Positions 2,897 through 46,588 of a DNA stretch of 64,000 nucleotides are shown in pieces. How positions within the stretch are numbered: the first letter of the stretch is position 1; each line of letters starts with the position of its first letter. The stretch lies in NCBI GenBank assembly GCA_947632455.1, contig CANRPK010000001.1, positions 18,228 to 82,227 of the forward strand, read 5' to 3'. The DNA comes from an uncultured Bacilli bacterium (GTDB lineage Bacteria; Bacillota_I; Bacilli_A; RF39; UBA660). The translations under genes were made by a program, and so were the position numbers. The notes under the pieces were generated by a model. That model had not been told where the DNA came from. It saw only the letters and a program-made list of their open reading frames with translations, and did not search any database.

Positions 2897-4189
2897 TTAT
2901 AAACTTATTTCTTCATTCCTGCAAGTAATTACATCTGCAAATATTTTTTTATTTTCAATCTTAACTATTTGTACTTCATAAAAAGTATTTAACATACAAT
3001 CTCGAGATATATATACTTTTAAATAATTGCTTGTATGTCCCACAATATAATTATCCTCAAATTCTTCTGTAAGCACTTCCATTTTCGTATTTAAAAACTT
3101 TTTCGCATATTCTAATTCTAAATTATCTGAAAGAGCTAATAATTTATTTACTCTTTGTTTTTTAATATTATTATCTACTTGAGGCATTAAAGCCGCGGCA
3201 GTTCCATTTCGCATAGAATATGGAAAAACATGAATTTTAGCAAACTTTAATTTTTGTGAAAACTCTAAACACTCTAAAAAATCTTCATCAGTCTCATATG
3301 GATGCCCCACTATTATATCAGTTGTAATAGCTATATCTTTTCTAATATCTCTAATTTCGGCAATTTTTTTAGCAAAAAATGCTTTATCATATTTTCTATT
3401 CATTCTCTTTAAAACATTCTCACTACCACTTTGAAGAGGAATATGTAAATGGTTAGCAATTTTATCACAAGTTTTTAATACATTCATAAATTTGCCATTT
3501 AACTCTGTAATCTCTATACTCGATATTCTAATTCGTTTTAAATCTTCTATTTTAGCTAACTCCAAAATTAAATCGCTTAAATCATGTCCCAAAGAATTGT
3601 ATGATCCTGTATGTATTCCCGTTAAAACTAACTCTTTATGGCCCTTTGCCACTAAATCTTTTGCTTCCTCTATTACTAAATTAAAGTCTTTACTTCTAAT
3701 AGAACCTCTTACATAAGGAATTATACAATAAGAGCAAAAATTATCACATCCATCTTGAATTTTAATAAATGCTCTAGTATGAGTATCAAAATTTTGAATA
3801 TTCATATTTTCAAAATCTAGTTTTCTTTCTCTTGTAAAATATTCATATTTTTGTTTAGTTTCTAAGTATTCTTCGATAATATCTACAATCATACTTTTTT
3901 GTCTGTTACCAAGTAAAATATCAATACCTAAATTTTGATATTTCTCTGGATTATTTTGCGAACTACAACCACACACAACTAAAACACTATTAGGATATTC
4001 TCTTCTTTCTCTTCTAATAGTTTTTAAAGATTTATTATCTGCTGTATTAGTTACAGTACAAGTATTAATTATAATAATATCTGGTGTTTCTTCATCTAAT
4101 ATATAATTATTTTTTAATAATTGTTCTCTAATATATTCACTTTCATAAGAATTAACTTTACATCCTAAAGTTATTATTTTAAATTTCAT
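2897..4189 (-). CDS. mtaB: tRNA methylthiotransferase MtaB (radical SAM, MiaB family)
   Basis: 430 aa; N-terminal MTTase Cys residues; radical-SAM CxxxCxxC (CDNFCSYC); same position relative to dnaJ as yqeV/mtaB in Bacillus. Confidence 0.85.
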   Translation of the reverse strand: MKFKIITLGCKVNSYESEYIREQLLKNNYILDEETPDIIIINTCTVTNTADNKSLKTIRRERREYPNSVLVVCGCSSQNNPEKYQNLGIDILLGNRQKSMIVDIIEEYLETKQKYEYFTRERKLDFENMNIQNFDTHTRAFIKIQDGCDNFCSYCIIPYVRGSIRSKDFNLVIEEAKDLVAKGHKELVLTGIHTGSYNSLGHDLSDLILELAKIEDLKRIRISSIEITELNGKFMNVLKTCDKIANHLHIPLQSGSENVLKRMNRKYDKAFFAKKIAEIRDIRKDIAITTDIIVGHPYETDEDFLECLEFSQKLKFAKIHVFPYSMRNGTAAALMPQVDNNIKKQRVNKLLALSDNLELEYAKKFLNTKMEVLTEEFEDNYIVGHTSNYLKVYISRDCMLNTFYEVQIVKIENKKIFADVITCRNEEISL

Positions 4190-30849: not shown

Positions 30850-31279
30850 CTAATATTTTTTTAATTTATCTATATCTGTAAAAAAGATTTTAATTCCTCT
30901 ATTATGAAGTTTCATTAAATTTTTAAAATTTTTAAGTATTATTTTTTCTAATTTTAATGGAACTCTTGCTGGTTTTCCATCTATTTGTATGTACATGATC
31001 AATGTATTTTTCTAAAGTTGGGAAAGCATTCTATAATAATATAGCACAATCTTCACTGAAAATTTTTTCAATAATTATTGTATTGCAAAAACCATATTTA
31101 TCTGTCTTTTTGTCCACTATAGAGCTAATAGGAATAAACCATAATATATTTCCTTCTTTAACTGTAAAATACGGAGGCCTCTTCTTGCCTCTTTCATGAT
31201 TTTGCATTAAATTTTCATCATTAACGACATCAAAATATTCATCTTTGATATGATATAAATATCCAGTTTTTATTTCCAT
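30850..31279 (-). pseudogene. degenerate ToxN/AbiQ-like (type III toxin) gene remnant
   Basis: The 82-aa ORF 31031..31279 resembles the N-terminal half of ToxN/AbiQ endoribonucleases (Y..I.DEY...V......RPPY.......I...IPISS). The frame then hits TAG, and the downstream frames are full of stops. Confidence 0.3.
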
Positions 31280-31428
31280 TGTCTATAAACTCCATCTAAA
31301 GTAAAAGAAAACTCCATCTTTGATGAAAATTTCTCTATTTTCAACCAAAATCATTTATTATTCGTACTATCAAGAAGCAAAAAAATTTTCACTCTTTCTC
31401 AAGGCACAATTAAATATAATTTACTAGC

Positions 31429-31500
31429 AATTATTTGAATTAATATAGAACACCTTTACGGACTATTTGTTCTCTTTTTCACATATAGCAGCTTGTGCCA
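31429..31500. repeat. left direct repeat: about 72-bp displaced copy of the ppdK 3' end (attL-like)
   Basis: 66 of 72 matches to 35491..35562. On the minus strand it encodes ...AQAAICEKENK* versus the authentic ...AQAAIREKENK*; all but one difference are at wobble positions. Confidence 0.8.
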
Positions 31501-31620
31501 CAATTTTATTCGGGATGAATAAGATTAAATTTATATAAATTTACTAATGACTAATGTCTCCAATACTATTTAATTATACCACTTTCAGTTCAAAATTAAA
31601 ACCTAGTTATTAAAACTAGG

Positions 31621-31665
31621 CTCCGAATGACCTAGAGCTTCAAAAGTTTTCTAGGCACCACTCAT
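31621..31665. repeat. 45-bp hairpin-containing repeat, copy 1 (second copy at 32580..32620)
   Basis: ATGACCTAGrGCTTCAAAAGTTTyCTAGGCACyACTC is present in direct orientation on both sides of the Abi_2 gene; it contains a CCTAGrG...CTAGG inverted repeat. Confidence 0.6.
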
Positions 31666-31691
31666 TAATATTATATTACTAAATTTAAAAA

Positions 31692-32561
31692 TTATACATT
31701 AGGATAACCCATAATTCTTAAAATATTTTTTACACTTATTGAATTTAATTTTTTATCTAATTTTTTAATTTCTTTTTCTATTGATATAATTAAACTATTA
31801 TATTGTCTTTTATCTAAAATAACTTGCATTGATTTTATCATCATATATAAATTTGTAAGATTATCTTTAGATTTATAATTAACATCTATTTCTTTAAATT
31901 TTAAAGTATATTTATCTCTATAGCAAAATAAACGGTCATTATGAGCACAAATATTTCTAACATTCGTTAAACACCTTAATATTTGTTTTAATAAAACATC
32001 AGATATTTTAAATTTTTTAGCAATAATTTGCCTATCACTCTGTTTAAGTAATCCATAATAACTACTTATAATTCCGAAAGTTAAAATTTTGGTTAAAACA
32101 AATGGTGGAACAAATCCATAAGTATTCTTATAATGTGTAATAGCTAGATGAACACCATAATTTTTATTAATTTCTTTATTTATTTTGTTAATTAACTTTT
32201 TTCTGACTTTTATACCAGTATTTCCATCTAAATTATTAACATCAAGGTAATAATCAATATCATAAACACTGGCAAGATGATTAGCTAATAAAGATTTAAT
32301 AATTGTTTCTATTTCCAAAGAATATTTTAAAATTATTAACTTAATATTTTTGTCAAATTCGTATAAAGCAAATATTTCCTCAAAAGTAACATTAGGCAAA
32401 TAATTATTATTAGAGTCCTTAAAATTATATTTGTAACTATTAACGATGGAATAATAAGAATATTTTTCTAACCTTTTTAAAGCAAGTTTTCTTTTATTAA
32501 TAGTAACACTCTTTGATTCTAAATAATTTAGTAGTTCTTCATTAGTTTTATATTGCTTCAT
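31692..32561 (-). CDS. Abi_2 family (AbiD/AbiF-like, HEPN-type) abortive-infection protein
   Basis: 289 aa; C-terminal motif VRNICAHNDRLF (RNxxxHxxR), typical of Abi_2/HEPN. Confidence 0.8.
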   Translation of the reverse strand: MKQYKTNEELLNYLESKSVTINKRKLALKRLEKYSYYSIVNSYKYNFKDSNNNYLPNVTFEEIFALYEFDKNIKLIILKYSLEIETIIKSLLANHLASVYDIDYYLDVNNLDGNTGIKVRKKLINKINKEINKNYGVHLAITHYKNTYGFVPPFVLTKILTFGIISSYYGLLKQSDRQIIAKKFKISDVLLKQILRCLTNVRNICAHNDRLFCYRDKYTLKFKEIDVNYKSKDNLTNLYMMIKSMQVILDKRQYNSLIISIEKEIKKLDKKLNSISVKNILRIMGYPNV

Positions 32562-32579
32562 TTAACCTCCTGAAATAAA

Positions 32580-32620
32580 AATGACCTAGGGCTTCAAAAG
32601 TTTCCTAGGCACTACTCGAT
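32580..32620. repeat. 45-bp hairpin-containing repeat, copy 2
   Basis: See copy 1; this copy lies immediately upstream of the Abi_2 start codon. Confidence 0.6.
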
Positions 32621-32686
32621 TTATAATATACCATACTTATATAAATTAAGTCAATACAAAATTATGCTAAATATGAAAATTTATTT

Positions 32687-33868
32687 TTATTTATTATCTA
32701 TTTTTTTATTTTCTACTTCTTTTTTATAATTTGAATATATTTCTCTTACAATATCATCAAATTTATTTTTACTATCATTGCATTTATAATAGTTTAATGC
32801 ATAATGCTTAAATTCACTAAAAGTTTCAGGATTAAATGTATATCCATAAATAGTTATTTTATTATGATATTTGACTCCAGCCATTTGTGCTTGCAAATCA
32901 CACAAAGGTATGAAATCTTCTTTTAAATAATTAAACATTTCCTCGTATGTCATTTTACCATTAAATAAATTAGGATACTTATTTTTTAAATTAAACATTT
33001 TTCTAGCATTACCATATTTAAGTTCTATTAATCCATTTTTGTAAACAGCATCATCTGGAATTAATTCATTAGGAATATTTATTGATACATTAAATGAATT
33101 ATTTTTTCGTGCATATTCAATTAAACTTGGCACTTGTATATGTACTTTATCTAAATATTCAAGTAAAAACAAATAAAATGAATATAAAGTATTTTCTATT
33201 GTACTATTTGATCTAGCTAATAAAGTATCATTATTAGGTATAAGAGTAACATTAGTAACATTATCTTTATCGACATTAAAAATTAATCCTTGATCCAAAA
33301 TACAAATAATTGAAATTTGATTATTACCATCAACTTTTTTGTTCAATTCAAATAATCTTTTTTGTATTTGCTCTAAAGAATAATTTGATGAATAAGCCAA
33401 TACAAAACCTAACGGATAAGCATTGTCATATAAATTATAAATTCCATTTTTATTAGGCAGTTTACTTAATTGCCTAACACTTTCAACATTTTTTACACTT
33501 TGTTCAAGTGTAGAATAATCAAGTATTGATTTTATCTCTACTGTAGCATAAATACTTTCTATTGGTAAAATGGAGTTTGAATCCGTTTTAAAAAAACTTG
33601 GACAATTAAAAGCATCATATATTATAAAATCTTGTTGTTTACTTTGATGTTGATTGTTATCTATAACAATTCCACTAGAAATCGAATACTTTTCTGGAAG
33701 TAATTTTTTTAAATAGTCTTTAAGTAAATCTTCACGTGCACTTCCTTTAACCCCATTATGCTTAATTTGTTTAGTAATACCATCAAAATCAATTTTTAAT
33801 TTTTTTGCAATATCTTCAATATTATAAATAAACATATAACATCTCCAAAAAAAGCAACTAATATACAT
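32687..33868 (-). CDS. large hypothetical protein with an N-terminal PD-(D/E)xK-like nuclease signature
   Basis: 393-aa ORF; the likelier start is the internal ATG at about 33835 with a GGAGATG ribosome-binding site. N-terminal region GVKGSAREDLL...DFIIYD...VEIKS fits a D-x(n)-E-x-K restriction-endonuclease-like core; about 250 aa of uncharacterised C-terminus follow. Confidence 0.55.
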   Translation of the reverse strand: MYISCFFWRCYMFIYNIEDIAKKLKIDFDGITKQIKHNGVKGSAREDLLKDYLKKLLPEKYSISSGIVIDNNQHQSKQQDFIIYDAFNCPSFFKTDSNSILPIESIYATVEIKSILDYSTLEQSVKNVESVRQLSKLPNKNGIYNLYDNAYPLGFVLAYSSNYSLEQIQKRLFELNKKVDGNNQISIICILDQGLIFNVDKDNVTNVTLIPNNDTLLARSNSTIENTLYSFYLFLLEYLDKVHIQVPSLIEYARKNNSFNVSINIPNELIPDDAVYKNGLIELKYGNARKMFNLKNKYPNLFNGKMTYEEMFNYLKEDFIPLCDLQAQMAGVKYHNKITIYGYTFNPETFSEFKHYALNYYKCNDSKNKFDDIVREIYSNYKKEVENKKIDNK

Positions 33869-33895
33869 ATATTATAACATTAACGATTATTTTTT

Positions 33896-34752
33896 TCATT
33901 TTATTTTGTTATATTGAATAATTGCCTCAATAATATATTGTTCAATATATCTTTTATCCCTTTTTAATAATTCTTTTGGTAATACCGATTCTATTTTTTC
34001 TTTATTAAATGAAATTTTGTCATTTTGATTTCCTTTTTTCTCTAGCAATATATTTTCTACCATATCAAAAGTTAATTTTTTCTTTTCACTTATTTTTCTA
34101 ATTTTCAAAGCTTGAGCATAACTTGGTGTAACTTCTTCATAAGTAATTGTAAAATATACTAATTCTTGAGCAGCTTTTGCTAGATAAGAAAGTTCAACAG
34201 CAGTAGTTATTCCTAAAGTTAAAATACTTCTCTTATCATAAATTACTGTATTATCAACAATTTTTAGTATCTCTGGTATCAAATAAGTCAGTCTTATATA
34301 TCTCCGTACTTGTTCTCGGGATTCTCCACTAACTTTAGATATTAATTCAACTGATGTTAACTTCTGCACACCCTGTGTAGAAGTGTTTTTTTTCCTTGAT
34401 GTTTAATTGCCTCTAATTTCATTTTATAGACAAATGCTTTTTCTGATGGTAAAATTTTATTTCGATAAATATTAGAATCTACCATGTAAATAGTAGCTTC
34501 ATCATCATTTAATTCTTCAATATAACAATCAGCCTCATGAATTCCATTTAATTCTAATGCTAATTTTCTTCTATGGCCTGATATCATTTCAAATCTTCCG
34601 TTTTCTTTTCTTCTTACCACTAATGGATTTAACAATCCATTTTCTTTAATGCTATTTCTTAATTCATTTAATGATTCATCTTTTTCTACTCTAAAAGGAT
34701 GATTTTTAAATGAATCTATCATTCTTAAATCTATTTTTATTACTTTTTTCAT
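33896..34752 (-). pseudogene. ParB/Srx N-terminal-domain plus HTH protein, split by a -1 frameshift in an A8 tract
   Basis: ORF 34357..34752 carries the ParB box (GLLNPLVVRR...EMISGHRR). ORF 33896..34369 carries the HTH (SVELISKVSGESREQVRRYI). The two frames overlap across GGAAAAAAAAC at about 34385-34394, and one additional A would fuse them into a single 288-aa protein. Confidence 0.6.
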
Positions 34753-35226
34753 CTATTCTCCTTCTTTCAATTCATAGTTAAGTTTCCATTCAAGATATTT
34801 TTCATAAGACAATTCTCTTGTATCTCGAAGTTTCCTCATTTTTTCCCATTCTTCCATAAATTTTAAAATCAAATTATCTCTATCATTACGAAAGTATTCA
34901 GAAATTGCAAAATCAATATTCATTTTAGGAAATAACTCTTCTAACCATAATAGGAAATAAATTATATCTTCAGATTTGTCAAAGTTATATTTTCGAATAC
35001 AATTAACATTAACATTTAAAATGTTAGCTATTTCTAAAAGTCTATCTTCTTTGGGAACTCTTTCTCCACTTTCATATCTTGCCATTCCTCTTCTCTTATT
35101 TTCCTTTTTCATTCCTAACTTTTCCGCAACCTCTTCTTGTGTTAAACCTCTAAACTGCCTTATAAATGCAATTCTTGCTCCTTGTGTTAAATCATCTAAT
35201 TCATGTCTAAAATATATTCTTCTCAT
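34753..35226 (-). CDS. XRE-family HTH transcriptional regulator
   Basis: 157 aa; HTH_3 motif LTQEEVAEKLGM...YESGERVP; strong GAGAGGAG ribosome-binding site; first gene of the island's co-oriented gene string. Confidence 0.8.
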   Translation of the reverse strand: MRRIYFRHELDDLTQGARIAFIRQFRGLTQEEVAEKLGMKKENKRRGMARYESGERVPKEDRLLEIANILNVNVNCIRKYNFDKSEDIIYFLLWLEELFPKMNIDFAISEYFRNDRDNLILKFMEEWEKMRKLRDTRELSYEKYLEWKLNYELKEGE

Positions 35227-35490
35227 TTTTATTAATCTCCTCTCTTTTACATTAAATATTTTTTAAGACAAAAACTAAGGCATCATTATCATAACTTATT
35301 TAGATTGAATTAAAAAATTATTTATCGCATTTTTTCAACTCCTTAAATTTGTCGCAAAAATACAATTTTTAACAAAAAAAGACCAAGATTATTTAAAATC
35401 TCAGTCTAAATTGAATTTATATAATTACTTTTTTTAGTTATTTAATTTTAACTCTAATTATCGCAAAATCTTCTAACATAATTATTATAA

Positions 35491-35562
35491 GTAATTATTT
35501 GAATAAATGTAGAACGCCTTTACGGACTATTTGTTCTCCTTTTCACGTATAGCAGCTTGTGC
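35491..35562. repeat. right direct repeat: the authentic ppdK 3' end (attR-like)
   Basis: Partner of 31429..31500; it overlaps the last 14 codons and the stop codon of ppdK. Confidence 0.8.
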
Positions 35563-38163
35563 TGCAGCAAGTCTAGCGATTGGAACTCTAAATGGACTAC
35601 ATGATACATAATCAAGGCCTATATTATGGCAAAATTCTACGCTTGATGGATCTCCACCATGTTCACCACAAATACCAATATGTAAATTATCATTTACATT
35701 TCTACCTAATTTAATAGCCATATCCATAAGTTTTCCTACCCCATTTTGATCTAATTTTGCAAATGGATCATTTTCTAAAATCTTAGTATCATAGTATGCT
35801 CTTAAGAATTTACCAGCATCATCTCTTGAAAAACCATAAGTCATTTGTGTTAAATCGTTTGTTCCAAAGCAGAAGAAATCAGCTTCTTTTGCAATTTCAT
35901 CCGCAGTAACACAAGCACGTGGTATCTCAATCATTGTTCCAACTTTATAATCTAATTTAACTCCAGCCTTTTTAATTTCTTCATCAGCAGTTTCAACAAC
36001 AATATTTTTAACATATTTTAATTCTTTAACTTCTGAAACTAATGGAATCATAATTTCTGGAACGATATTCCAATCTGCATGTTTCTTTTGGACATTTATA
36101 GCCGCTCTAATAACCGCTTTAGTTTGCATTTTAGCTATTTCTGGATAAGTTACTGCTAAACGACAACCTCTATGTCCCATCATTGGATTAACTTCATGTA
36201 AGCTAGCAATTAAATTTTTGATATCTTCCACACTCTTATTTTGTGCCTTAGCTAATTTAGCTATTTCTTCTTCAGTTGTTGGTACAAATTCATGTAAAGG
36301 TGGATCCAAATATCTTATTGTAACAGCATAGCCTTCTAATGCTTCATATAACTCTTCAAAGTCATTTTGTTGATAAGGAAGTATTTTATCTAAAGCTTTT
36401 TCTCTTTCTTCAACTGTATCAGCACAAATCATTTCTCTAAAAGCTGCAATTCTATCCTCTTCAAAGAACATATGCTCAGTTCTACAAAGCCCAATACCTT
36501 CAGCTCCTAATTCTCTAGCTTTTTTAGCATCTTTAGGTGTATCAGCATTAGTTTTAACTTTAAGTTTTCTAAACTTATCAGCCCAATTCATTACTCTTTC
36601 AAATTCTCCAGCAATAGTAGCATCTACAGTTTTAATAATTCCATCATAAATATTACCAGTTGTACCATCTATTGAAATATAATCTCCTTCATGGAATGTC
36701 TTACCACCTAAAGTAAATTGCTTATTTTCTTCATCCATTGTGATATCACCACATCCAGATACACAGCAAGTACCCATTCCTCGAGCAACAACTGCCGCAT
36801 GACTAGTCATACCACCACGAACAGTTAAAATACCTTGACTAGCCTTCATACCTGTTATATCTTCTGGAGAAGTTTCAAGTCTTACTAAAATAACTTTTTC
36901 TCCTTTAGCATGCCAAGCCTCAGCATCATCTGCTGTAAATACAACTTTACCACAAGCAGCTCCCGGAGAAGCACCTAAACCTTTACCCATTGGAGTAGCG
37001 GCTTTAAGTTCATTAGTATCAAATTGTGGATGAAGTAAAGTATCTAGATTTCTAGGGTCAATCATCTCTACAGCTTCTTCTTCAGTTCTCATACCTTCAT
37101 CAACTAAATCACAAGCAATCTTTAAAGCAGCTTTAGCAGTACGTTTACCATTTCTAGTTTGTAACATATAAAGTTTACCATGTTCCACTGTAAATTCCAT
37201 ATCTTGCATATCTCTATAATGAGTTTCTAATATATTACATACTTCTTTAAATTGTTTAAAAGCTTCTGGAAATTTAACTTCCATTTCACTAATTTTCATT
37301 GGAGTTCTAACACCAGCCACAACATCTTCACCTTGAGCATTTGTTAAAAATTCTCCAAATAAACCTTTTTCTCCTGTAGCAGGATCTCTAGTAAAGGCAA
37401 CACCTGTTCCACAATCATCGCCCATATTACCAAAAGCCATAGATTGAACATTTACTGCAGTTCCCCAAGAATAAGGAATATCATTATCTCTACGATAAAC
37501 ATTAGCTCTAGGATTATCCCAGCTTCTAAATACAGCTTTAATCGCTCCCATTAATTGTTCTTTTGGATCAGTTGGAAAATCTGTACCTATTTTAGATTTG
37601 TATTCTTCTTTAAATTCTCTTGCTAATTCTTTTAAATCTTCAGCACTAAGTTCAATATCTTGAGTAACTCCCTTAGCTTCTTTCATTTTATCAATAAGTT
37701 GTTCAAAATATTTTTTACCAACTTCCATAACTACATCAGAATACATTTGAATAAATCTTCTATAGCAATCCCAAGCCCATCTAGGATTATTAGATTTTTC
37801 AGCTAAAACATTTACTACTTCTTCATTTAAGCCTAAATTCAAAATAGTATCCATCATACCTGGCATACTAGCACGAGCACCACTTCTTACAGAAACTAAT
37901 AAAGGATTTTCTTTATCACCAAATTTTTTACCAGTTTCTTTTTCAAGCTTTAAGATATATTCATTAATCTGAGCTTGAATTTCTTCATTAATTTCTCTAC
38001 CATCTTCATAGTATTTTGTACAAGCTTCAGTAGTAATAGTAAAACCTTGAGGTACTGGTAACCCAATACTAGTCATCTCTGCTAAATTGGCACCTTTACC
38101 ACCTAAAAGGTCTCGCATATCTTTGTTTCCTTCTTTGAAGGAATAAACATATTTTTTCTCCAT
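35527..38163 (-). CDS. ppdK: pyruvate, phosphate dikinase
   Basis: 878 aa; N-terminal ATP-grasp region GGKGANLAEM; central phospho-His domain; C-terminal PEP-utilising TIM-barrel region; strong AGGAGGG ribosome-binding site; extended -10 TGCTATAAT upstream. Confidence 0.95.
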   Translation of the reverse strand: MEKKYVYSFKEGNKDMRDLLGGKGANLAEMTSIGLPVPQGFTITTEACTKYYEDGREINEEIQAQINEYILKLEKETGKKFGDKENPLLVSVRSGARASMPGMMDTILNLGLNEEVVNVLAEKSNNPRWAWDCYRRFIQMYSDVVMEVGKKYFEQLIDKMKEAKGVTQDIELSAEDLKELAREFKEEYKSKIGTDFPTDPKEQLMGAIKAVFRSWDNPRANVYRRDNDIPYSWGTAVNVQSMAFGNMGDDCGTGVAFTRDPATGEKGLFGEFLTNAQGEDVVAGVRTPMKISEMEVKFPEAFKQFKEVCNILETHYRDMQDMEFTVEHGKLYMLQTRNGKRTAKAALKIACDLVDEGMRTEEEAVEMIDPRNLDTLLHPQFDTNELKAATPMGKGLGASPGAACGKVVFTADDAEAWHAKGEKVILVRLETSPEDITGMKASQGILTVRGGMTSHAAVVARGMGTCCVSGCGDITMDEENKQFTLGGKTFHEGDYISIDGTTGNIYDGIIKTVDATIAGEFERVMNWADKFRKLKVKTNADTPKDAKKARELGAEGIGLCRTEHMFFEEDRIAAFREMICADTVEEREKALDKILPYQQNDFEELYEALEGYAVTIRYLDPPLHEFVPTTEEEIAKLAKAQNKSVEDIKNLIASLHEVNPMMGHRGCRLAVTYPEIAKMQTKAVIRAAINVQKKHADWNIVPEIMIPLVSEVKELKYVKNIVVETADEEIKKAGVKLDYKVGTMIEIPRACVTADEIAKEADFFCFGTNDLTQMTYGFSRDDAGKFLRAYYDTKILENDPFAKLDQNGVGKLMDMAIKLGRNVNDNLHIGICGEHGGDPSSVEFCHNIGLDYVSCSPFRVPIARLAAAQAAIREKENK

Positions 38164-38330: not shown

Positions 38331-39842
38331 TTATATGTTTGTTTTTACTACGAATGGACTACCAGATTTACCATTTCCTCCACTAAATTCTATATTAGAT
38401 TTAAGATTGATTACAGGTCTAACACCATGATTGCCATACACTGCGAAGCCGTTGAGGTCTCCACCATTAAGTACCCGAAACACATGAACCAGCTTGCCAG
38501 TGACATTATAGCGGGATGGAGACATTGTCCAATAATATTGGTTAGTATATAACCAATAATCAGTTGATGCTGTTCCTCCAAATCCTCCGACCATCATTAC
38601 TTCATCACTTGTTATTAAAGCAGCTGGTACATCTAAAGATTGGTTGCCAACATTTGAACCAATAGTTGTAAATAAGTCTCTTTTTAATGAATTTAGATCT
38701 ATTTCATCAAAACTTTTAAATCCTTCTACGTCTGATGGACTTGTTTCAGACATTTTTACTCCACACTTTAATGTTGAATACTGATTTTTTCTCCATCTAT
38801 CAGTTGTCATTAATCTTGATATTGGTGCATATCCTGTTGCAGTTTCTCCGGTACCATCGCCATTATAACCATTAAAAACATTTTTTACGACAGTTCTGTC
38901 ATTACACCATCCGGTGCTTCCCTCTAGATAATCTGTATAACCACTCATTGATCCTATTCCGTTATACCATGTTTGTACTGCTTCGGCGATATTACTTGGT
39001 GTAGTATTTGAGTGAGCCTCTTCATATTTTGGATTAGGATATTCTTCTGATTTTGCTGTTCCATAATAATAGCCAATGTAGGTGTTGTCATCATATGGTG
39101 CTGATTTATATGCTGATGTTGTGGCATTTGTTGTCTCTCCTTCAGTGGTTTCACAATTTGGTTCTGCACATTGGAATATTAATCTTAATGTGCCATCTCC
39201 ATTTATTCTGATTATTCTCCATGTATGATTTGCAAATGTTACCCAGTTATTTACATCATCATTATTTCCTCTAAATACATAGCTTGTTCCATAGTTATCT
39301 GGACTAGTATATAATTTCTCTTTTCCTTCGGGATTTTCTGTACTCTCATCGTATGGACCAGTTATGGGGTTTGGCATGGCGTCTATAGTATACTTGCTCC
39401 CTTTTGATGTTTCTAACTTACCTAACATTTCTTTTACTAAACTATCAAAATATATATAACATTTTGTTCCTTTTTCTGTTAAGTGAGATATATTTATTTC
39501 GCTATTTACATATTCTATTTCTACTTCTTCTATTGGTTTGCCATTTACTTCACAATAACTATCTTCACTTAGTTTATATCCCATTGTAGGTATCTTACTT
39601 ATATTGATATATTCCTTTTCTTCAGATGTACTATCATCTTTTTCTTGATACATCGCGATTATGTTTAAATCTGCTTTATTATAACTTATATTTCCACTTG
39701 CTAGTTCTATACTTTCTGTATTTCTATATCTTGCTAAACTCGTTATATAGTTTATTAATATTACTAATCCTATAGTTAGTAATATCCCTATTATTACTCC
39801 CTTTACTTTGGAGGTATTATCCTCCAATTTTTCTAATTTCAT
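38331..39842 (-). CDS. membrane-anchored secreted protein, paralogue 1 (unknown family)
   Basis: 503 aa; N-terminal TM; the roughly 40 residues after the TM helix are identical to paralogue 2 apart from one N/S difference, and the C-terminus is conserved; Cys-, Thr- and Gly-rich variable middle; no LPXTG motif and no cell-wall-binding repeats. Confidence 0.7.
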   Translation of the reverse strand: MKLEKLEDNTSKVKGVIIGILLTIGLVILINYITSLARYRNTESIELASGNISYNKADLNIIAMYQEKDDSTSEEKEYINISKIPTMGYKLSEDSYCEVNGKPIEEVEIEYVNSEINISHLTEKGTKCYIYFDSLVKEMLGKLETSKGSKYTIDAMPNPITGPYDESTENPEGKEKLYTSPDNYGTSYVFRGNNDDVNNWVTFANHTWRIIRINGDGTLRLIFQCAEPNCETTEGETTNATTSAYKSAPYDDNTYIGYYYGTAKSEEYPNPKYEEAHSNTTPSNIAEAVQTWYNGIGSMSGYTDYLEGSTGWCNDRTVVKNVFNGYNGDGTGETATGYAPISRLMTTDRWRKNQYSTLKCGVKMSETSPSDVEGFKSFDEIDLNSLKRDLFTTIGSNVGNQSLDVPAALITSDEVMMVGGFGGTASTDYWLYTNQYYWTMSPSRYNVTGKLVHVFRVLNGGDLNGFAVYGNHGVRPVINLKSNIEFSGGNGKSGSPFVVKTNI

Positions 39843-39999: not shown

Positions 40000-40452
40000 A
40001 TGTACACGGCTAAATTAAAAGAATTAAGAGAACGCATAGGTTTAAGCAAAACTGAAATTGCAAAAATAATAGGTATTGATCGCAGCCAATATGGCCATTA
40101 TGAAAATGATTATATAACTATACCTATAAAACATTTAGTAGCATTAGCCAATTATTACAATGTTTCCCTAGATTATATTTTTAATTTAAATCAAAACAAG
40201 CAATATCCGAAAATTAAAAAAGTAGTGGATCCCAAAATTAGTGGAAAACGTTTAAAGGAACTTAGAAAAGAATTTAAAATATCTCAAACCAATTTAGCTA
40301 ATTATTTAAATACAGCTTTTTCTACTATTTCATCTTACGAAAGAGGTATAAACACTATTGCAACAAATTATGTTTATGCCATATGTAAAAAATATAATAT
40401 TTCTGCTGATTACTTATTAGACAGAATTGATGATCCCAAATATTTAAAATAA
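40000..40452 (+). CDS. tandem-HTH (2x HTH_3/XRE) transcriptional regulator
   Basis: 150 aa; two helix-turn-helix units (LSKTEIAKIIGIDRSQYGHYE and ISQTNLANYLNTAFSTISSYE); divergent from surface-protein gene 1. Confidence 0.8.
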   Translation: MYTAKLKELRERIGLSKTEIAKIIGIDRSQYGHYENDYITIPIKHLVALANYYNVSLDYIFNLNQNKQYPKIKKVVDPKISGKRLKELRKEFKISQTNLANYLNTAFSTISSYERGINTIATNYVYAICKKYNISADYLLDRIDDPKYLK

Positions 40453-40530: not shown

Positions 40531-42039
40531 TTATATATTTGTTTTTACGATAAATGGATTGTCAGATTTACCAGTACCTCCACTAAATTCGATATCGGCA
40601 TTAAGATTAATTACTGGACGAACACCAAAAGTGCTATATACACCCCAAGTACGGAGGTTGCCATCGTAATGCACGTGGAAAGCGGCAGCTTCATTAACAT
40701 TGGTATCATACCAAAAAGGAGACATTGTCCAATAGTTTTGGCCTGTGTATAACCAATAGTTAGTACTTACTGTTCCTCCAAAGCCTCCGGCCATAACTAC
40801 TTCATCACTTGTAATTAATGCTGATGGTACAGAAAGTCTTTCATTTCCTCTATTTGAGCTTTCAGTAGTAAATAAATCTCTTTTTAATGCTGTAGCATCT
40901 ATTTCATCAAAACTACTAAATCCGACATTATCTGATGGACTTATTTCTGGCATTACTACTCCACACTTTAACGTTGGATATTGCTTTGTTCTATAGTTTC
41001 CTGTTGGAATTAATCGTGAAGCTGGGGCATATCCTGTTGCAGTTTGTGCTGTTCCATCACCTTCATAACCACCCCAAACTTTCTTTACGATAGTTCGATC
41101 ATTACACCATCCAGTATCTCCATTTAAATATTTGGTATAATTTGTCATTGCTCCTGTTCCACTATACCAACTGTCAACAGCTTTTGCTATATCACTAGGA
41201 GTGGAATTTGAATGTGTTTCTTCATATGTTGGATCTTCTTCGTCTTTATCCGCTTTGGATGTTCCATAATAATAGCCGACATAAGTGTTATCATCAACTG
41301 GTCTAGATTTATATGCATTATTACCTATTTGAGTTTGAATGCCTGTTGTATCTGTACATTCTGGTGTTGCACATTGGAATATCATTCTTAATGTGCCATC
41401 TCCATTTATTCTGATTATCCTCCATGTATGACCTGCAAAAGTTACCCAGTTATGCACATCCTCATTATTTCCCCTAAAGACATAACTGGTTCCATAATTA
41501 TCTTCGGTTGTGTATAATTTTTCTTTTCCTTCGGGATTTTCTTTTTGTGCATCATATGGTCCTGTTATAGGACTTGGCATGGCATCTATGGTATATTTGC
41601 TTTGTTTTGTTGTTTCTAACTTTGCTAACATATCATCTGCCTTATAATCCATATCAAAATATACATAACATTTCGTTCCTCTTTTATTTATTTTACTTAC
41701 ACTTATATATCCTTCTTCATATGTTATCTGTGCTTCTTCTACTTTTTGTCCTTCTACTTCACAATAGCTTTTATTACTCAATGTATATTTTTCAGTTGGT
41801 ACATCATCTATTTGTTTATATCCATTTGTACCATAACTGCTTTCTTGATACATCGCTATTATACTTAAATCTGCTTTATTATAACTTATATTACCACTTG
41901 CAAGTTCTATACTTTCTGTATTCCTATATCTTGCTAAACTGGTTATATAGTTTATTACTATAAATAATATTGCACATACTATAAAGCCATATATAAATAA
42001 TTTTTTATCTTTTTCTTTACTTAACCCTTTTAATTTCAT
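40531..42039 (-). CDS. membrane-anchored secreted protein, paralogue 2
   Basis: 502 aa; same architecture as paralogue 1. The nucleotide sequence is near-identical at both ends of the gene and diverged in the middle. Confidence 0.7.
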   Translation of the reverse strand: MKLKGLSKEKDKKLFIYGFIVCAILFIVINYITSLARYRNTESIELASGNISYNKADLSIIAMYQESSYGTNGYKQIDDVPTEKYTLSNKSYCEVEGQKVEEAQITYEEGYISVSKINKRGTKCYVYFDMDYKADDMLAKLETTKQSKYTIDAMPSPITGPYDAQKENPEGKEKLYTTEDNYGTSYVFRGNNEDVHNWVTFAGHTWRIIRINGDGTLRMIFQCATPECTDTTGIQTQIGNNAYKSRPVDDNTYVGYYYGTSKADKDEEDPTYEETHSNSTPSDIAKAVDSWYSGTGAMTNYTKYLNGDTGWCNDRTIVKKVWGGYEGDGTAQTATGYAPASRLIPTGNYRTKQYPTLKCGVVMPEISPSDNVGFSSFDEIDATALKRDLFTTESSNRGNERLSVPSALITSDEVVMAGGFGGTVSTNYWLYTGQNYWTMSPFWYDTNVNEAAAFHVHYDGNLRTWGVYSTFGVRPVINLNADIEFSGGTGKSDNPFIVKTNI

Positions 42040-42176: not shown

Positions 42177-42641
42177 TTGGTGATTTCTATGAATTATGAA
42201 AATAATTTAAAAGCTCTAAGAACAGAATTTAACATCTCTCAAAAACAACTTAGTGAAATGTTAGAAATTGATAGAACAACCTACAATCATTATGAAAATA
42301 ATTACATAACTATCCCTATAAAACATTTAATTAAACTTAGTGAATTTTTTCACACTTCAATAGACTATATTTTTGGTTTTACTAATTTACATAATAAATT
42401 ACCCAATATAACCCCTTCTCTTGCTTCTACTCGTCTTAAAGAATTTCGCAAAAATAATAAATTAACTCAAGCCAAACTAGCTGAAATACTAAACACCAAT
42501 CAATCAGTTATTGCCAATTATGAAAGAGGAAGAACACTAATTGCTACTCCATTTTTATATACGATTTGCAAAAAATATGATATATCCGCGGATTACTTAT
42601 TAGGCAGAACTGATGAACCAAAAGTCATAAAAAAACAATGA
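42177..42641 (+). CDS. tandem-HTH (2x HTH_3/XRE) transcriptional regulator, paralogue 2
   Basis: 154 aa; same two-HTH organisation as 40000..40452. Confidence 0.8.
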   Translation: MVISMNYENNLKALRTEFNISQKQLSEMLEIDRTTYNHYENNYITIPIKHLIKLSEFFHTSIDYIFGFTNLHNKLPNITPSLASTRLKEFRKNNKLTQAKLAEILNTNQSVIANYERGRTLIATPFLYTICKKYDISADYLLGRTDEPKVIKKQ

Positions 42642-42652
42642 TCATCTATTTA

Positions 42653-43345
42653 TCATTGTTTTTTATTTATAACATCTAAAAATACATAATTAGCAAGTGT
42701 TAACCCGGCAATTCCTGGTGTAAAAATAGCACTTCCTAAATCTTGATCTGTCTTTAGTGGTAATGCTGCACTAAAGACTACTAAAGTATTTAAATTCAAA
42801 TTTTCTTTTTTAAGTAAATATCTTAATTTCTTAGCCAAAGGGTCATTAAACGTTTTATTTAATTTAGTTACCTGTATTCCCGAAATATCAAGTCTTCTAG
42901 CCGTACCAAGACAAGTAATAATTTTTATATTATTTTCTTGTGCCAATTTTATTAAACCAACTTTAATATCAATATCATCACAAGCATCTATAATATAATC
43001 ATAATCTTTATTTACATATTCTTCCAAATTATCTTTAGTTAAAAATTTATTTATGGCTTCTAAATTAATATTGGGATTAATACTATAAGCTCTTTTTTTA
43101 GCTTCTAAAACTTTAGATTTAGTTAAATTATCTTGAAGAGCAATAATTTGTCTATTTAAATTTGAGGCATCAATTACATCTCCATCAATAATTGTAATAT
43201 TTCTAAAGCCACTTCTAATTAAAGCTTCTAAAACAAAACCGCCAACTCCCCCAACACCAATTAAAAGCACTTTAGTCATAGCGATTTTTTCTAAATCTTC
43301 TTCTGTAATTAACTTTAATAATCTTGAAAACATTTTAAACACCAC
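42653..43345 (-). CDS. tcdA: tRNA threonylcarbamoyladenosine dehydratase (TcdA/CsdL, ThiF/MoeB family)
   Basis: 230 aa; Rossmann motif GVGGVGG; ThiF-family middle region; extended -10 TGGTATAAT upstream. Confidence 0.8.
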   Translation of the reverse strand: MVFKMFSRLLKLITEEDLEKIAMTKVLLIGVGGVGGFVLEALIRSGFRNITIIDGDVIDASNLNRQIIALQDNLTKSKVLEAKKRAYSINPNINLEAINKFLTKDNLEEYVNKDYDYIIDACDDIDIKVGLIKLAQENNIKIITCLGTARRLDISGIQVTKLNKTFNDPLAKKLRYLLKKENLNLNTLVVFSAALPLKTDQDLGSAIFTPGIAGLTLANYVFLDVINKKQ

Positions 43346-43611: not shown

Positions 43612-45540
43612 TTAAGAAACAACTCCTGTAGTATTAGGATTAACTCTTGAAGTAACTCTACTTTGAGCTTGCATTTGTCCCGTAATATTATCAGTTGGAA
43701 CACCTTCTGTAACATAATTATTCGCTACTGGTTGAGCATTTATTGGTTTTTCTGCAGGCTTTTGTCCCCAACAACCTGAAACATTACAGTTAGTACTATA
43801 AGGCATAGGATCTGGCATTTCTAGTTTACAAATCATAGGTATTTTAAAAGCTGACCCAAACGCTACACAATTTCCTGGTTGAAGAACTTTTTGTTTTTCA
43901 ATAACATCCGCGCTAATATTTGGAAGCATTTCTTCAATATATTTAATATCTTTAGGGTGTGTCATTTTAAATATTAAGAAATTAGAACATTGCGCAATAA
44001 CTGTATCACTTATTTCAACTGGTCTTTGGCTTATAATATCTAACATAACTCCATATTTACGACCCTCTTTAGCAATTCTATCAAATATATTATAACCTAA
44101 TAAGAAAGTATCTGTATCTTGTTGAATATACCTATGGGCCTCTTCCAAAAATAAATGAAATGGAATACTTGCTCTTTGTTTTAAACCTTTAGCATAATCA
44201 AATAATAATTTAGATATAATTTTAACAATAACTTTAGCCATTGCATCATCAATATCTTCCAAATTTATATTAACAATTTGAGCTTTTGAATTATTTTTTC
44301 GACATAACTCTTCAATAAATTCTTCTACACTTGTATATTTTGAACCATCAAAATAATTATTTACTGGTCCACTTATAATAGTATTAAGTCTTACTTGTAA
44401 AATCATTGCTTCATTATACATTACTTGATTACCTTGAAAACCTTCACTAATTAAAGTAAACTCTAATGCATTAGCTAATTCTTTTAAAGTATAAAAGCTT
44501 TTTTCTGGAATTGCAATTTCTTCAATAGATTCATCGATATGTTTTAAAATATATTCTGTAATTAATACAGATTCTCCAAAATTACCATTAGAATCTATTT
44601 CAAAACATTCACTAAAACTTCTAGTATAACCAACTCCTGGAATTATAGAATCAAAATTAAATTCTTCAGTATGACATACTTCAATTACTTTAAATATTTC
44701 ATTCTTTTTATAACTAGTAGTCATATTACTAAATAAAATAGCAATTAAAGCTTTAGCAATTAAATGATTTTTATATTTAGTTACTTCTTCCCCTTCACTA
44801 GCAAATAATTTAGCATATTTTATACTACGTTCCAAAATAGGTAGTTGGGAATGGCTAGAAGCTTGTAAAAGTAAAGCTACATCATCTAAAGTAAGTAAAT
44901 TAACTGGTATTTTAAGTAAAAAATCTGATGCATCTTGGGGATGGGTTGTAACAAACTTATAACTATAATTTGGATTAATTTTATCTAAAGAGCCAAAAGC
45001 ATTTTTATATTCACCATAAGCATCAAAGAAAAACATATTGGCATTATAAGTAGTCATTTTAGGATTACTAAAAATATTTTGAATAATCCTAGAAACACCA
45101 CAAGATTTACCTGAACCAGAATTTCCAAAAATAGCTAAATGATTAGAAAATAAACTATTTATATCTGGACATATTTGAAATCCTTTATATGTTGCACTTG
45201 TTCCTAAAACAAAGTTTTTATCACTAAGTCTACCTACAATCTCTAATAATTCTTCGCCATTTATTACTCTAATTTTACTAGATAGTAAAGGCTTTCTAAT
45301 AACACCATTTACATATTTAGTACCCATAAATTCACCTAAAAAGCGAATAATAATCTCCTCGCTATTTAATTCTACAACTTCCCCTAAAATTCTTTGATCT
45401 TTATCTTCAAAAATAACATGAATATTCATTAAATCCGCGGTAATAGTATCTTTACTAATATTTTCAACATGGGCTATATTATCACTTATATATAAAATTT
45501 TTCCAAATATCATCTTATCGCACCCTTTTACTATAACCAA
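43612..45540 (-). CDS. HerA/FtsK-like (DUF87-type) P-loop ATPase
   Basis: 642-aa ORF; the likelier start is the ATG at about 45513 with an AAAGGGTG ribosome-binding site. N-terminal beta-barrel-like region, Walker A GNSGSGKS, Walker B with the HerA-type LFLEEAHRY, and a low-complexity C-terminal tail. Confidence 0.7.
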   Translation of the reverse strand: MVIVKGCDKMIFGKILYISDNIAHVENISKDTITADLMNIHVIFEDKDQRILGEVVELNSEEIIIRFLGEFMGTKYVNGVIRKPLLSSKIRVINGEELLEIVGRLSDKNFVLGTSATYKGFQICPDINSLFSNHLAIFGNSGSGKSCGVSRIIQNIFSNPKMTTYNANMFFFDAYGEYKNAFGSLDKINPNYSYKFVTTHPQDASDFLLKIPVNLLTLDDVALLLQASSHSQLPILERSIKYAKLFASEGEEVTKYKNHLIAKALIAILFSNMTTSYKKNEIFKVIEVCHTEEFNFDSIIPGVGYTRSFSECFEIDSNGNFGESVLITEYILKHIDESIEEIAIPEKSFYTLKELANALEFTLISEGFQGNQVMYNEAMILQVRLNTIISGPVNNYFDGSKYTSVEEFIEELCRKNNSKAQIVNINLEDIDDAMAKVIVKIISKLLFDYAKGLKQRASIPFHLFLEEAHRYIQQDTDTFLLGYNIFDRIAKEGRKYGVMLDIISQRPVEISDTVIAQCSNFLIFKMTHPKDIKYIEEMLPNISADVIEKQKVLQPGNCVAFGSAFKIPMICKLEMPDPMPYSTNCNVSGCWGQKPAEKPINAQPVANNYVTEGVPTDNITGQMQAQSRVTSRVNPNTTGVVS

Positions 45541-45566
45541 TTATAACATATTTAATAATCAAAAAA

Positions 45567-45582
45567 AAGAGGTTTTCCTCTT
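45567..45582 (-). terminator. intrinsic terminator after 45584..46588
   Basis: AAGAGG-AAAA-CCUCUU followed by a U8 run on the minus-strand RNA, immediately after the stop codon. Confidence 0.6.
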
Positions 45583-45583
45583 T

Positions 45584-46588
45584 TTATGTTTCTCGCCAAA
45601 TTTCATACCAATTTTTTAAATTAGTAAGACCATCTCCCGCGATATCCTTTATTAATTCCCAAGATAAATGGAAATTTTGTTTTAATTCTGTAAAACCATC
45701 TTTTGCCTGATTGCATAAAGTTGGTTCATTAGTACAAACTTTAGTAGTAATAGTTAAATAAGCTTCTACAATTTTACTTTTGACATTTGTATAAACTTTG
45801 GTAACCCCATTACTTATCGTTTCTTTATATCCTGGAAAATATTGTTCAATTTTTGTATCAAAATATAAAGCCATTCCTAATACTTTAAGTTTAACTGTAT
45901 TTGTTAAATCACTAAACTTATAACCCTTTATAGTTCCATTATAAAATAAAAAATCAACTACACTTACAAAACCTTTTTTTATAGTATTACTATTTTTATT
46001 TTCATCAATACTTACTTTATAATCATTAAAATAAGCTATTACTTCTGTATCTGCATTACCACTATTACCTGTTTCAGTATTATTATCTTCACTATTATTT
46101 AGATCATTATTAGGATTTTTAACCTCTTCATTTTTACTTACTTCATTATTAGGCTTTTCATTAACAATTTTATCCTCTACATTATTTTCTTTATTTTCAT
46201 CATCTATATCCGGAGTTTCATTTTCTGTATCATCCGTATTTATATCTTCATCTATTTTTTCATCACTATTATTTTCATTAACCTTAATTAATTCTTCATC
46301 ACTAATTATAATAGTTTTAGGACTAGCATCATCATTTAAATTACTTTTATCATAACTAAATTTAACTTCATCCCCAACTTGATATATACCTTTAATATTT
46401 TGAATTAAATAATCTTCATCATCTGCTTCAATCATCACATAATTTGGAGAAGCAATTATAACTACTCCCGTAATTTCTTGTAAGTCATCTTTATTATTAT
46501 CTTTAATTAAATAATAAATAACTACTAAAGCACCAATAAAAAGAATAAATAAAACAACTAAAAGAATATTCTTTGTTTTATCCCGCAT
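45584..46588 (-). CDS. membrane-anchored protein with an Asn/Asp/Glu-rich disordered linker
   Basis: 334 aa; N-terminal TM; small beta-rich domain; about 90 aa of low-complexity acidic/Asn-rich linker; C-terminal domain of about 150 aa; GAAAGGGGA ribosome-binding site. Confidence 0.6.
   Translation of the reverse strand: MRDKTKNILLVVLFILFIGALVVIYYLIKDNNKDDLQEITGVVIIASPNYVMIEADDEDYLIQNIKGIYQVGDEVKFSYDKSNLNDDASPKTIIISDEELIKVNENNSDEKIDEDINTDDTENETPDIDDENKENNVEDKIVNEKPNNEVSKNEEVKNPNNDLNNSEDNNTETGNSGNADTEVIAYFNDYKVSIDENKNSNTIKKGFVSVVDFLFYNGTIKGYKFSDLTNTVKLKVLGMALYFDTKIEQYFPGYKETISNGVTKVYTNVKSKIVEAYLTITTKVCTNEPTLCNQAKDGFTELKQNFHLSWELIKDIAGDGLTNLKNWYEIWRET

Follow-up and report, generated by a model that had tools for sequence, protein, structure and literature searches.

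The stretch of DNA analysed here, 64 kb of contig CANRPK010000001.1 and referred to as the window throughout, stems from a low-GC uncultured Bacilli lineage sourced from gut metagenomes and contains a segment of 4.1 kb that lies between direct repeats at the 3′ end of ppdK, the gene for pyruvate phosphate dikinase. The segment carries four genes, which like every other gene of the region are encoded on the minus strand (Table 1). Profile searches recovered the content that a preliminary description of this DNA had read from the letters alone, namely an XRE-family regulator, a ParB-like protein, a protein with a PD-(D/E)xK-like nuclease core, which is matched by DUF6602 as well as by the PADLOC PD_DExK and NucC models, and an Abi_2 protein of the HEPN type. 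The loci with which the segment was compared carry the labels L001 to L200.

A repeat search of the window showed that the bracketing repeats, previously given as 72 nt, extend slightly further and comprise 78 nt, of which 70 are identical between both copies. Their 23-nt core matches the 64 kb exactly twice, with an expectation of 0 from 100 shuffles, and a search with the core pattern revealed no third attachment (att) site copy in the window. The right copy consists of the final 36 nt of ppdK (...AQAAIREKENK-stop) and about 42 nt of its 3′ flank, and the left copy encodes ...AQAAICEKENK-stop. The earlier claim that the differences lie mostly at wobble positions and hence testify to coding constraint could not be upheld, because only two of the eight differences fall into the 36 coding bases (one synonymous, one replacing R by C), whereas six are located past the stop codon. 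The reading of the duplicated ppdK tail as an att signature is borne out by islands at the same site in relatives, some of which carry a large serine recombinase. The repeats are the attL and attR scars left when an element inserted site-specifically into the final ppdK codons.

Table 1. Features of the ppdK-associated island and of its immediate surroundings in the window.
Feature	Coordinates	Strand	Details
ppdK (pyruvate phosphate dikinase), target gene	35527..38163	-	ORF; PPDK_N, PEP-utilizers and PEP-utilizers_C on identical protein
attL, right repeat copy	35485..35562	-	core CACAAGCTGCTAT, then element-borne tail IREKENK-stop + TCCGTAAAGG...
Intrinsic terminator for ppdK, element-borne	35380..35407	-	AGACTGAGATT...AATCTTGGTCT + T-run
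XRE-family regulator, 157 aa	34753..35226	-	HTH_19/HTH_3 (Pfam); N-terminal HTH and conserved C-terminal domain
ICE-type ParB, two overlapping ORFs	33896..34752	-	131 aa ParB_N with GHRR box; 157 aa HTH/C-terminal
Candidate recoding signal	34360..34395	-	GG-A8-C run (34386-34393), 2 nt, 10/11-bp stem-loop (34360-34384)
DUF6602/NucC-fold PD-(D/E)xK candidate nuclease, 382 aa	32687..33835	-	~130-aa C-terminal helical extension
AbiF-type cassette	31598..32654	-	promoter 32625-32654, 5′ hairpin 32580-32617, RBS, Abi_2 31692-32561, 3′ hairpin 31626-31663, terminator hairpin 31598-31624
Island right end, element-side arm of attR	31499..31524	-	CTTATTCATCCCGAATAAAATTGTGG, directly before crossover core
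attR, left repeat copy	31421..31498	-	core + displaced ppdK tail (ICEKENK-stop)
Decayed CptIN type III TA locus, outside island	30856..31385	-	one cptI-like repeat + CptN pseudogene
ORF, open reading frame; HTH, helix-turn-helix; ICE, integrative and conjugative element; RBS, ribosome-binding site; TA, toxin-antitoxin.

The final approximately 20 nt of ppdK and its 3′ flank are supplied by the island, and the PpdK tail varies from locus to locus, matching whichever element sits there. The element-borne tail IREKENK-stop with the following TCCG... is the same in the window, L003 and L119 and near-identical in L118, and the terminator hairpin behind ppdK is kept in L003 and has a near-identical counterpart in L200. 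At the opposite end, the arm motif TCCC(G/A)AA-N5-A-N-(T/A)GT is common to the window, L118, L119, the island of L200 and the end of an ICE in L200; in the window its palindrome ATCCC...GGGAT is degraded to ATCCC...AAAAT. The displaced PpdK tail is host-specific in L088, L092, L118 and L119, and in the window it is of the element-borne type, which points to an earlier occupant of the ppdK site or to accretion there and also accounts for the unusual length of the 78-nt repeat. An attR of such a presumed older element was not found near the CptIN remnant, and the window contains no tRNA genes. Excision is predicted to restore ppdK at attB as ...GCACAAGCTGCTATATGTGAAAAAGAG... and to yield a circular attP junction ...AAAATTGTGG^CACAAGCTGCTATACGTGAAAAGG... 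(here and below, the caret stands for the boundary).

Comparison with other genomes shows that the ppdK 3′ end is occupied by a whole family of elements. A DUF6602 homologue termed P0039 (70% identical to the protein of the window) is encoded just downstream of ppdK in eight metagenome loci, which have the layout ppdK, XRE homologue (37% identical to that of the window), variable cargo, large serine recombinase and DUF6602 gene. L088 and L092 harbor identical P0039 proteins, with ppdK genes upstream that share 87% and 67% identity, respectively, with that of the window. The element ends of both loci match likewise (...GGTT^CACAAGCTGCAATCAAA, in its fuller form ...TTGATTATGGTT^CACAAGCTGCAATCAAA) and are followed by differing, host-specific displaced PpdK tails (KANSNK-stop and KSGDRK-stop), with the functional ppdK bearing an element-supplied tail in either case. 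The occurrence of the same protein and the same element ends with different ppdK genes and different tails indicates site-specific insertion into the AQAAI codons and horizontal transfer between hosts.

Searching with the XRE protein brought up two islands that are more closely related to that of the window. In L118 the XRE protein is 97% identical to that of the window and the order is ppdK, XRE, split ParB, an OLD-like ATPase-TOPRIM protein and a different Abi_2 protein; in L119 an XRE protein of 76% identity is followed by a split ParB and a 1205-aa protein without family match. The right end TTATTCATCCC(G/A)AAT...(T/A)GTGG^CA(C/T)AAGC is common to the window, L118 and L119, and different displaced tails come next. 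A metagenome scan with the XRE alignment as query added ten loci with the arrangement ppdK-XRE(-ParB), whose PpdK is 64–86% identical to that of the window over the stretch present on each contig; for the site family overall, the PpdK proteins of the hosts are 64–92% identical. The XRE gene stands directly downstream of ppdK in L088–L095, L118–L125, L128, L130, L132 and L133. Tandem att copies, three to five in number, divide short segments in L128 and L129, and a second, distal copy is present in L130 and L132; the arrays in L128 and L129 arose as one element after another accreted at the 3′ end of ppdK. Copies of the ppdK tail were located at 3962, 5682 and 11901 in L128 and at 429, 938, 4363 and 5110 in L129. 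The family thus comprises ICEs, small islands with a large serine recombinase and recombinase-less islands, all of which swap the C-terminal tail of PpdK and leave the old tail at the far end. Among the closer relatives, a deletion in L003 removes XRE, ParB and the nuclease domain, a local blastn comparison with the window revealed a decayed Abi_2 cassette directly behind ppdK in L002 (the closest species), and the related species L004 and L005 have a different synteny downstream of ppdK and gave no clean attB. A literature search found no published report linking ppdK with such elements.

As stated in the preliminary description for an integrase, no recombinase, relaxase or type IV secretion system genes are present among the ORFs between the repeats (Pfam and PADLOC, and NCBIfam for three of the four genes), nor did tblastn with three serine recombinases match a remnant in the window or Pfam detect one in ten flanking ORFs. 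Large serine recombinases with Resolvase and Recombinase domains, which the island of the window lacks, are encoded inside the elements of L088–L095, L132 and L200. They are CcrB/XisF-like, a ppdK-site recombinase scoring 138 bits against the CcrB model with its cut-off of 900 bits. In L104 and L105 a deletion has joined the recombinase to the C-terminal half of DUF6602, and in L130 a recombinase fragment alone remains. ICEs follow ppdK in four Clostridia genomes (L015, L025, L048 and L069), that of L015 carrying genes for DUF6075, ParA, ParB, RepA_N, TraG/VirD4 and TrbL and that of L069 being similar. In L200 an ICE tail with TraG/VirD4, a 2125-aa SNF2 protein and a 609-aa serine recombinase (57% identical to the enzyme of L088) is followed by an att copy, a terminator hairpin of the window type, an XRE gene (72% identical at the protein level to that of the window), a fragmented ParB gene, cargo and a second att copy, and both the ICE end and the island end bear the arm motif TCCCGAA-N5-A-N-TGT. 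The att copy at the ICE end (9634–9797 of L200) lies within the 3′ end of the serine recombinase ORF, so that this gene spans the recombination site. As a separate observation, several hosts encode a tyrosine recombinase upstream of ppdK (299–302 aa, XerC/D-like by size and domains; L088 1–404, L104 2178–3086, L119 5090–5989). In L119 it adjoins ppdK, in L088 and L104 a Fic gene and a 58-aa ORF lie in between, and the window and L118 do not have it.

Within the island family, the XRE gene comes first after attL throughout. The ParB gene behind it is encoded in two overlapping ORFs, of which that at 34357–34752 matches ParB_N (E 2.6e-15) and that at 33896–34369 gives a weak ParB-HTH signal. Both the ParB_N domain with its GxRR box and the HTH domain are hence encoded, but in two frames that are broken at the A8 run. 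A −1 shift at this position would yield a 285-aa product that is collinear with uninterrupted ParB proteins; the fused sequence gave single-piece tblastn matches of 41–48% identity in plasmid and phage records, and the ParB of the window is 48–50% identical to the ICE ParB proteins behind ppdK in L015, L025, L048 and L069. The break is repeated in the independent assemblies L082, L084 and L085. The window and L118 read GGA-AAA-AAA-ACA here; L119 reads GGT-AAA-AAA-AAG and so contains A_AAA_AAG, which we take to be the classical slippery heptamer of the dnaX type. The arms of the stem that follows are identical in the window, L118 and L119, and the loops differ (GGG, GGA and ACC). Between the window and L119, the synonymous divergence dS amounts to 0.86 for the N-terminal and 1.43 for the C-terminal ORF, with ratios of nonsynonymous to synonymous divergence (dN/dS) of 0.08 and 0.07, and both halves of ParB are under purifying selection. 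Conservation of the A8 break and the stem-loop over this distance, together with the selection on both halves, makes recoding likelier than the decay that had been assumed for the interruption, and full-length ParB is probably made by programmed recoding, be it −1 frameshifting at the A8 run or transcriptional slippage. The more distant islands L121, L122, L124 and L126 possess an uninterrupted ParB gene. In L124 (10835–10890) an in-frame A7 run is followed at the same place by a different hairpin of 8 bp, and the arrangement of run and hairpin may accordingly predate the frame break. XRE and ParB are the conserved backbone of the islands and presumably serve in regulation and maintenance.

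The third gene encodes the DUF6602 protein. Its ORF (32687–33868) has room for 393 aa, and the called homologues place the start probably at M12 (33835). The protein matches DUF6602 (E 1.1e-28), the PADLOC model ‘PD_DExK, Cas-associated’ (4.7e-40) and two NucC effector models (1.3e-33 and 6.7e-25). Residues D69, E100 and K102, which are invariant across 40 homologues, align with D73, E104 and K106 of NucC, and the protein combines the NucC fold with a PD-(D/E)xK active site of the IDx30EAK type. NucC is an effector of the cyclic oligonucleotide-based antiphage signalling system (CBASS) and of type III CRISPR that is activated by cyclic triadenylate (cA3), and in E. coli NucC the residues R53, Y81 and T226 as well as H136 and Y141 have been assigned to the cA3 pocket and the gate loop (bioRxiv 10.1101/694703). 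A phmmer comparison with 6p7o, in which T226 lies outside of the alignment and which is a comparison of sequence only, shows that most of these residues are replaced (R53 by K49, Y81 by N77 and H136 by N128), with Y141 kept as Y133. In further contrast to NucC, the protein has no CBASS or Cas10 neighbours in the scanned loci: neither a CD-NTase (cGAS/DncV-like nucleotidyltransferase) nor Cas10 was detected among the genes of the island, the scanned flanking ORFs and the called neighbours at 18 homologue loci (L088–L105). It moreover possesses an extra C-terminal domain, for the approximately 130 residues of which no fold match was obtained and which is likely a regulator. Damona has been described as a single-gene anti-phage cassette with a DUF6602 domain in the chromosomal integron of Vibrio cholerae (bioRxiv 10.1101/2024.07.02.601686). 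Damona and the window protein both have a DUF6602 domain whose secondary matches agree (Cas-associated PD_DExK, CBASS small endonuclease), and both are encoded by a single gene on mobile or variable DNA, with stand-alone homologues of the window protein in L096–L103; the likeness is drawn by domain description, and differences may exist in host phylum and C-terminal extension. We infer that the window protein acts by itself as a nuclease in the manner of Damona and responds to an activator different from cA3. Homologues of 78–79% identity stand alone with a hydrolase gene in L096–L100, and that of L101 adjoins YhcG/PDC-S02, NUDIX and serine recombinase genes. The DUF6602 homologues P0008, P0012, P0017 and P0028 (559 aa) are fused to Ser_hydrolase (PF06821), and in L096–L100 both domains are encoded by adjacent overlapping ORFs (e.g. 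L096 9001–10679).

The last gene belongs to a self-contained transcription unit. Its product matches Pfam Abi_2 (2.3e-45) and PADLOC AbiD (3.1e-52), contains the HEPN motif RNICAH and is homologous to PbAbiF (PDB 8VZ6, 1.6e-18 over residues 2–213). AbiF is an RNase toxin of the HEPN type that is neutralised by a structured RNA encoded in cis (PMC12737573, PMC12373285). In the window, a 38-nt hairpin element with a 7-bp stem and a small inner stem is present once in the 5′ untranslated region (UTR) and once in the 3′ UTR, the two copies being 92% identical. Across eight copies from four loci, 95% of the alignment cells are compatible with pairing and three pairs show compensatory changes, in comparison to 11–60% for slid controls, and within about 2 Mb of fetched loci and the window the motif is confined to the flanks of Abi_2 genes. 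No other Rfam family is credible in the island, the sole match at E ≤ 1 being a snoRNA by chance (E 0.44). The cassette thus resembles the AbiF/AbiFr type III TA systems (PbAbiF, C. difficile AbiFCd-RCd22) in its Abi_2 domain, the HEPN Rx4H motif, its homology to 8VZ6 and two structured cis RNA motifs per locus, but differs in that the hairpins flank the ORF, whereas the known pair lies entirely upstream, and in the missing match to the Rfam abiF motif. We infer that the hairpin is a variant AbiF-associated RNA, for which an antitoxin role is predicted. Abi_2 homologues of 81–90% identity reside between LysR and radical-SAM genes or beside a Y1 transposase, and the unit of promoter, hairpin, ribosome-binding site, ORF, hairpin and terminator is the same in every homologue locus. 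This unit of about 1.15 kb recurs in the unrelated contexts of L108–L117 (e.g. L108 5900–7065 and L116 140–1770) as if it were a mobile cassette, with a Y1 transposase of the IS200/IS605 type behind it in L116 and L117 and about 5 kb away in L114. In principle, both hairpins, being on the same strand, might also mark the ends of a transposon of the IS200/IS605 type; since they lie inside the transcript, between promoter and terminator, a role as RNA fits at least as well.

We consider it probable that the 4.1-kb segment is a non-autonomous island of the ppdK-targeting family, akin to a cis-mobilizable element (CIME), in which three independent modules are assembled. The preliminary description also raised the alternative that these genes belong to an integrative element as its cargo and that the integrase is gone. 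This is essentially right; relatives at the same site carry a large serine recombinase. The element would insert by site-specific recombination into the last ppdK codons, with the crossover in the core around CACAAGCTGCTAT that encodes AQAAI, most likely through a large serine recombinase. An incoming element would bring along a replacement PpdK tail with a terminator and leave the previous tail at its far end. To move, the copy in the window would need a recombinase from elsewhere, provided either in trans or, once a ppdK-targeting ICE has accreted next to it, in cis; it may equally be fixed in place. As to its cargo, the DUF6602 protein is predicted to cut DNA upon phage infection without a cyclic-oligonucleotide signal, and the AbiF-type RNase toxin would be restrained by its own UTR hairpin RNAs, a type III TA logic that would result in abortive infection.

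CIMEs and the model of ICE/CIME accretion have been established for streptococcal elements (PMC5704250). Like CIMEs, the island of the window has retained attL and attR around a gene 3′ end (the 78-nt repeat, the right-end arm and the left element-borne tail) and is devoid of integration and transfer genes in the scanned inter-repeat ORFs, full ICEs occupy the same site, and the family features tandem arrays with hybrid att sites (L128, L129, L200) as well as decay by deletion (L003, L104). Examples of CIMEs are the islands related to ICESt1/ICESt3 that occupy the fda 3′ end in Streptococcus thermophilus. The family described here differs from these streptococcal elements in its target ppdK, in large serine instead of tyrosine recombinases, and in a conserved XRE-ParB head that is combined with exchangeable defence cargo in several recombinase-less copies. 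A second parallel is provided by the staphylococcal cassette chromosome mec (SCCmec), an island with variable cargo that is inserted between direct repeats at the 3′ end of a housekeeping gene by large serine recombinases of the Ccr type, and of which ccr-less pseudo-SCC and tandem composites exist in staphylococci. Common to both are recombinases related to Ccr/XisF, a housekeeping 3′ end as target and recombinase-less and tandem copies; target gene and hosts are different, and the cargo consists of defence instead of resistance genes.

The preliminary description had also considered that the four genes form one novel defence module. In such a module, XRE and ParB would sense or regulate and both nucleases would act as effectors. 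Their common orientation and close spacing, the absence of a predicted terminator between the XRE and the DUF6602 gene and the union of an XRE-ParB head with an Abi_2-family gene in L118 would agree with such a system, but the genes do not co-occur. DUF6602 homologues of 70–79% identity are found without ParB or Abi_2 in L088–L105, Abi_2 stands alone behind ppdK in L002 and is self-contained in L108–L117, and XRE-ParB heads islands with entirely different cargo in L118, L119, L124 and L200. The Abi_2 protein of L118 (332 aa, AbiD model 3.7e-18) is of another subfamily and has no hairpin, and no multi-gene model of PADLOC covers the four-gene set, which altogether makes a single system very improbable. 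The sister islands instead contain type IIG restriction-modification (R-M), type I R-M, the OLD-like ATPase-TOPRIM protein with another Abi_2 protein, or REase_MTES_1575/DUF4379, so that the cargo slot is defence-rich and the gene combination of the window incidental. Also found in this slot are the 1205-aa protein of L119 (10402–14019) and a 487-aa protein of L088 (4729–6192), both without Pfam or PADLOC match and the latter without NCBIfam match, which are candidate defence genes. The least probable of the readings takes the segment for what is left of a prophage or a phage satellite that integrates into ppdK. Its first gene is repressor-like, ParB homologues occur in some phage-labelled records and Abi genes are common in prophages (PMC12373285), but neither capsid, terminase, primase nor any other phage-type Pfam match was obtained in the island of the window, L088–L095, L118 and L119, and the characterised large elements at the ppdK site (L015, L200) are conjugative, with TraG/VirD4, TrbL and RepA_N. 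A phage or satellite origin was dropped upon searching 2.9 million viral contigs, which returned no match to the XRE alignment and one distant match to Abi_2.

The remaining alternatives concern mobility. The island could be a fixed chromosomal scar with conserved flanks, ppdK and XRE-ParB on one side and core genes on the other, through which homologous recombination exchanges the cargo, as happens at other hotspots of defence genes. All conspecific contigs carry it, variants with deletions in place occur in L003, L002 and the L104 fusion, and the window has no recombinase. Against this stand the identical DUF6602 proteins and element ends behind clearly different ppdK genes in different genomic surroundings, as well as the tandem att arrays and the conservation of the element-side arms next to differing displaced tails, which are signatures of site-specific insertion; we thus regard a mere scar as quite unlikely. 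More weight, though still less than to its opposite, can be given to the idea that the XRE-ParB islands, far from being products of decay, are dedicated recombinase-less shuttles whose defence slot is exchangeable and which ppdK-targeting ICEs would move as a matter of routine by means of their serine recombinase. Head, recoding signal, right-end arm and purifying selection are common to three islands that differ in cargo and have no recombinase, the ICE and island of L200 have a common arm motif and stand in tandem, and ppdK-XRE-ParB loci are numerous in metagenomes. However, only three to four complete islands were seen, the contig of L118 stopping just past attR and the end of the L124 island not being seen, the arm palindrome of the window is degraded, the ParB gene of L200 is fragmented, and an excision product or circular form cannot be shown from the present data. 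Should the idea apply, the islands might constitute a previously undescribed class of shuttles that moves between gut Firmicutes and swaps single-gene defence cassettes in a fixed slot; tentatively, NucC-fold/DUF6602, AbiF-like, OLD-like, R-M and the unannotated 487-aa and 1205-aa proteins could all be such cassettes, and maintenance or cargo expression might conceivably depend on the proportion of short and full-length ParB that recoding sets.

Several observations weigh against the preferred reading of a CIME-like island with independent modules. Exact look-ups of PpdK, DUF6602 and the CptN fragment did not find an empty site, and L002 has no recognisable attR or XRE-ParB, which suggests that the history of the site is more complex than one insertion. 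The 64-kb window contains no recombinase, and with its degraded right-end palindrome this copy of the island may be immobile. The most likely serine type of the recombinase is, for the subfamily of the window itself, read from one tandem locus (L200) and from the similarity of the arms. A recombinase is missing from each of the three XRE-ParB islands with different cargo (window, L118 and L119), which is not what simple independent decay would predict. As to the AbiF-type cassette, cmscan found no match to the Rfam abiF motif RF03085 in 7 kb at E ≤ 1 and in two short flanks at E ≤ 10, the evidence for the hairpin comes from eight related sequences, and the thermodynamic z-score of the 5′ copy is 0.05, that is, without signal.

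Outside the island, next to attR, lies the decayed CptIN locus. The CptN pseudogene comprises an 82-aa ORF (NCBIfam NF047359, 1.8e-19) followed by a stop codon and a frameshift, and a tandem-repeat search detected no cptI-like array in the window. An intact CptIN system is located at the same position after attR in L200, with a CptN of 155 aa (71% identical) and two cptI repeats of about 49 nt. On the other side, a 642-aa ATPase of the HerA family (PADLOC HerA 1.8e-107; DUF87) and a 334-aa protein without family match are encoded side by side on the minus strand (43612–46588), some 5.5 kb upstream of ppdK, and may form a HerA-type defence pair. A ThiF/E1-like gene is found at 42653–43345, and two paralogous proteins of 502 and 503 aa without Pfam or PADLOC match (38331–39842 and 40531–42039) are each paired with a divergent double-HTH XRE regulator (40000–40452 and 42177–42641); homologues of these proteins are encoded upstream of ppdK in L003, L004 and L006.

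The island does not introduce a new defence mechanism; both of its nucleases are of already known kinds of single-gene anti-phage nuclease. A testable detail is offered by the NucC-fold nuclease, which is apparently uncoupled from cyclic-oligonucleotide signalling and has an extra C-terminal domain, and the slippery run and hairpin in parB could represent a rare instance of a partition-type protein made by programmed recoding. The natural attL/attR pairs with their candidate cognate large serine recombinases are of interest for genome engineering. For the hosts, the 3′ end of ppdK with its AQAAI core is a conserved insertion hotspot of gut Bacilli and Clostridia and a source of variable defence cargo, the harvest of which includes large proteins without family match such as those of 487 aa in L088 and 1205 aa in L119.

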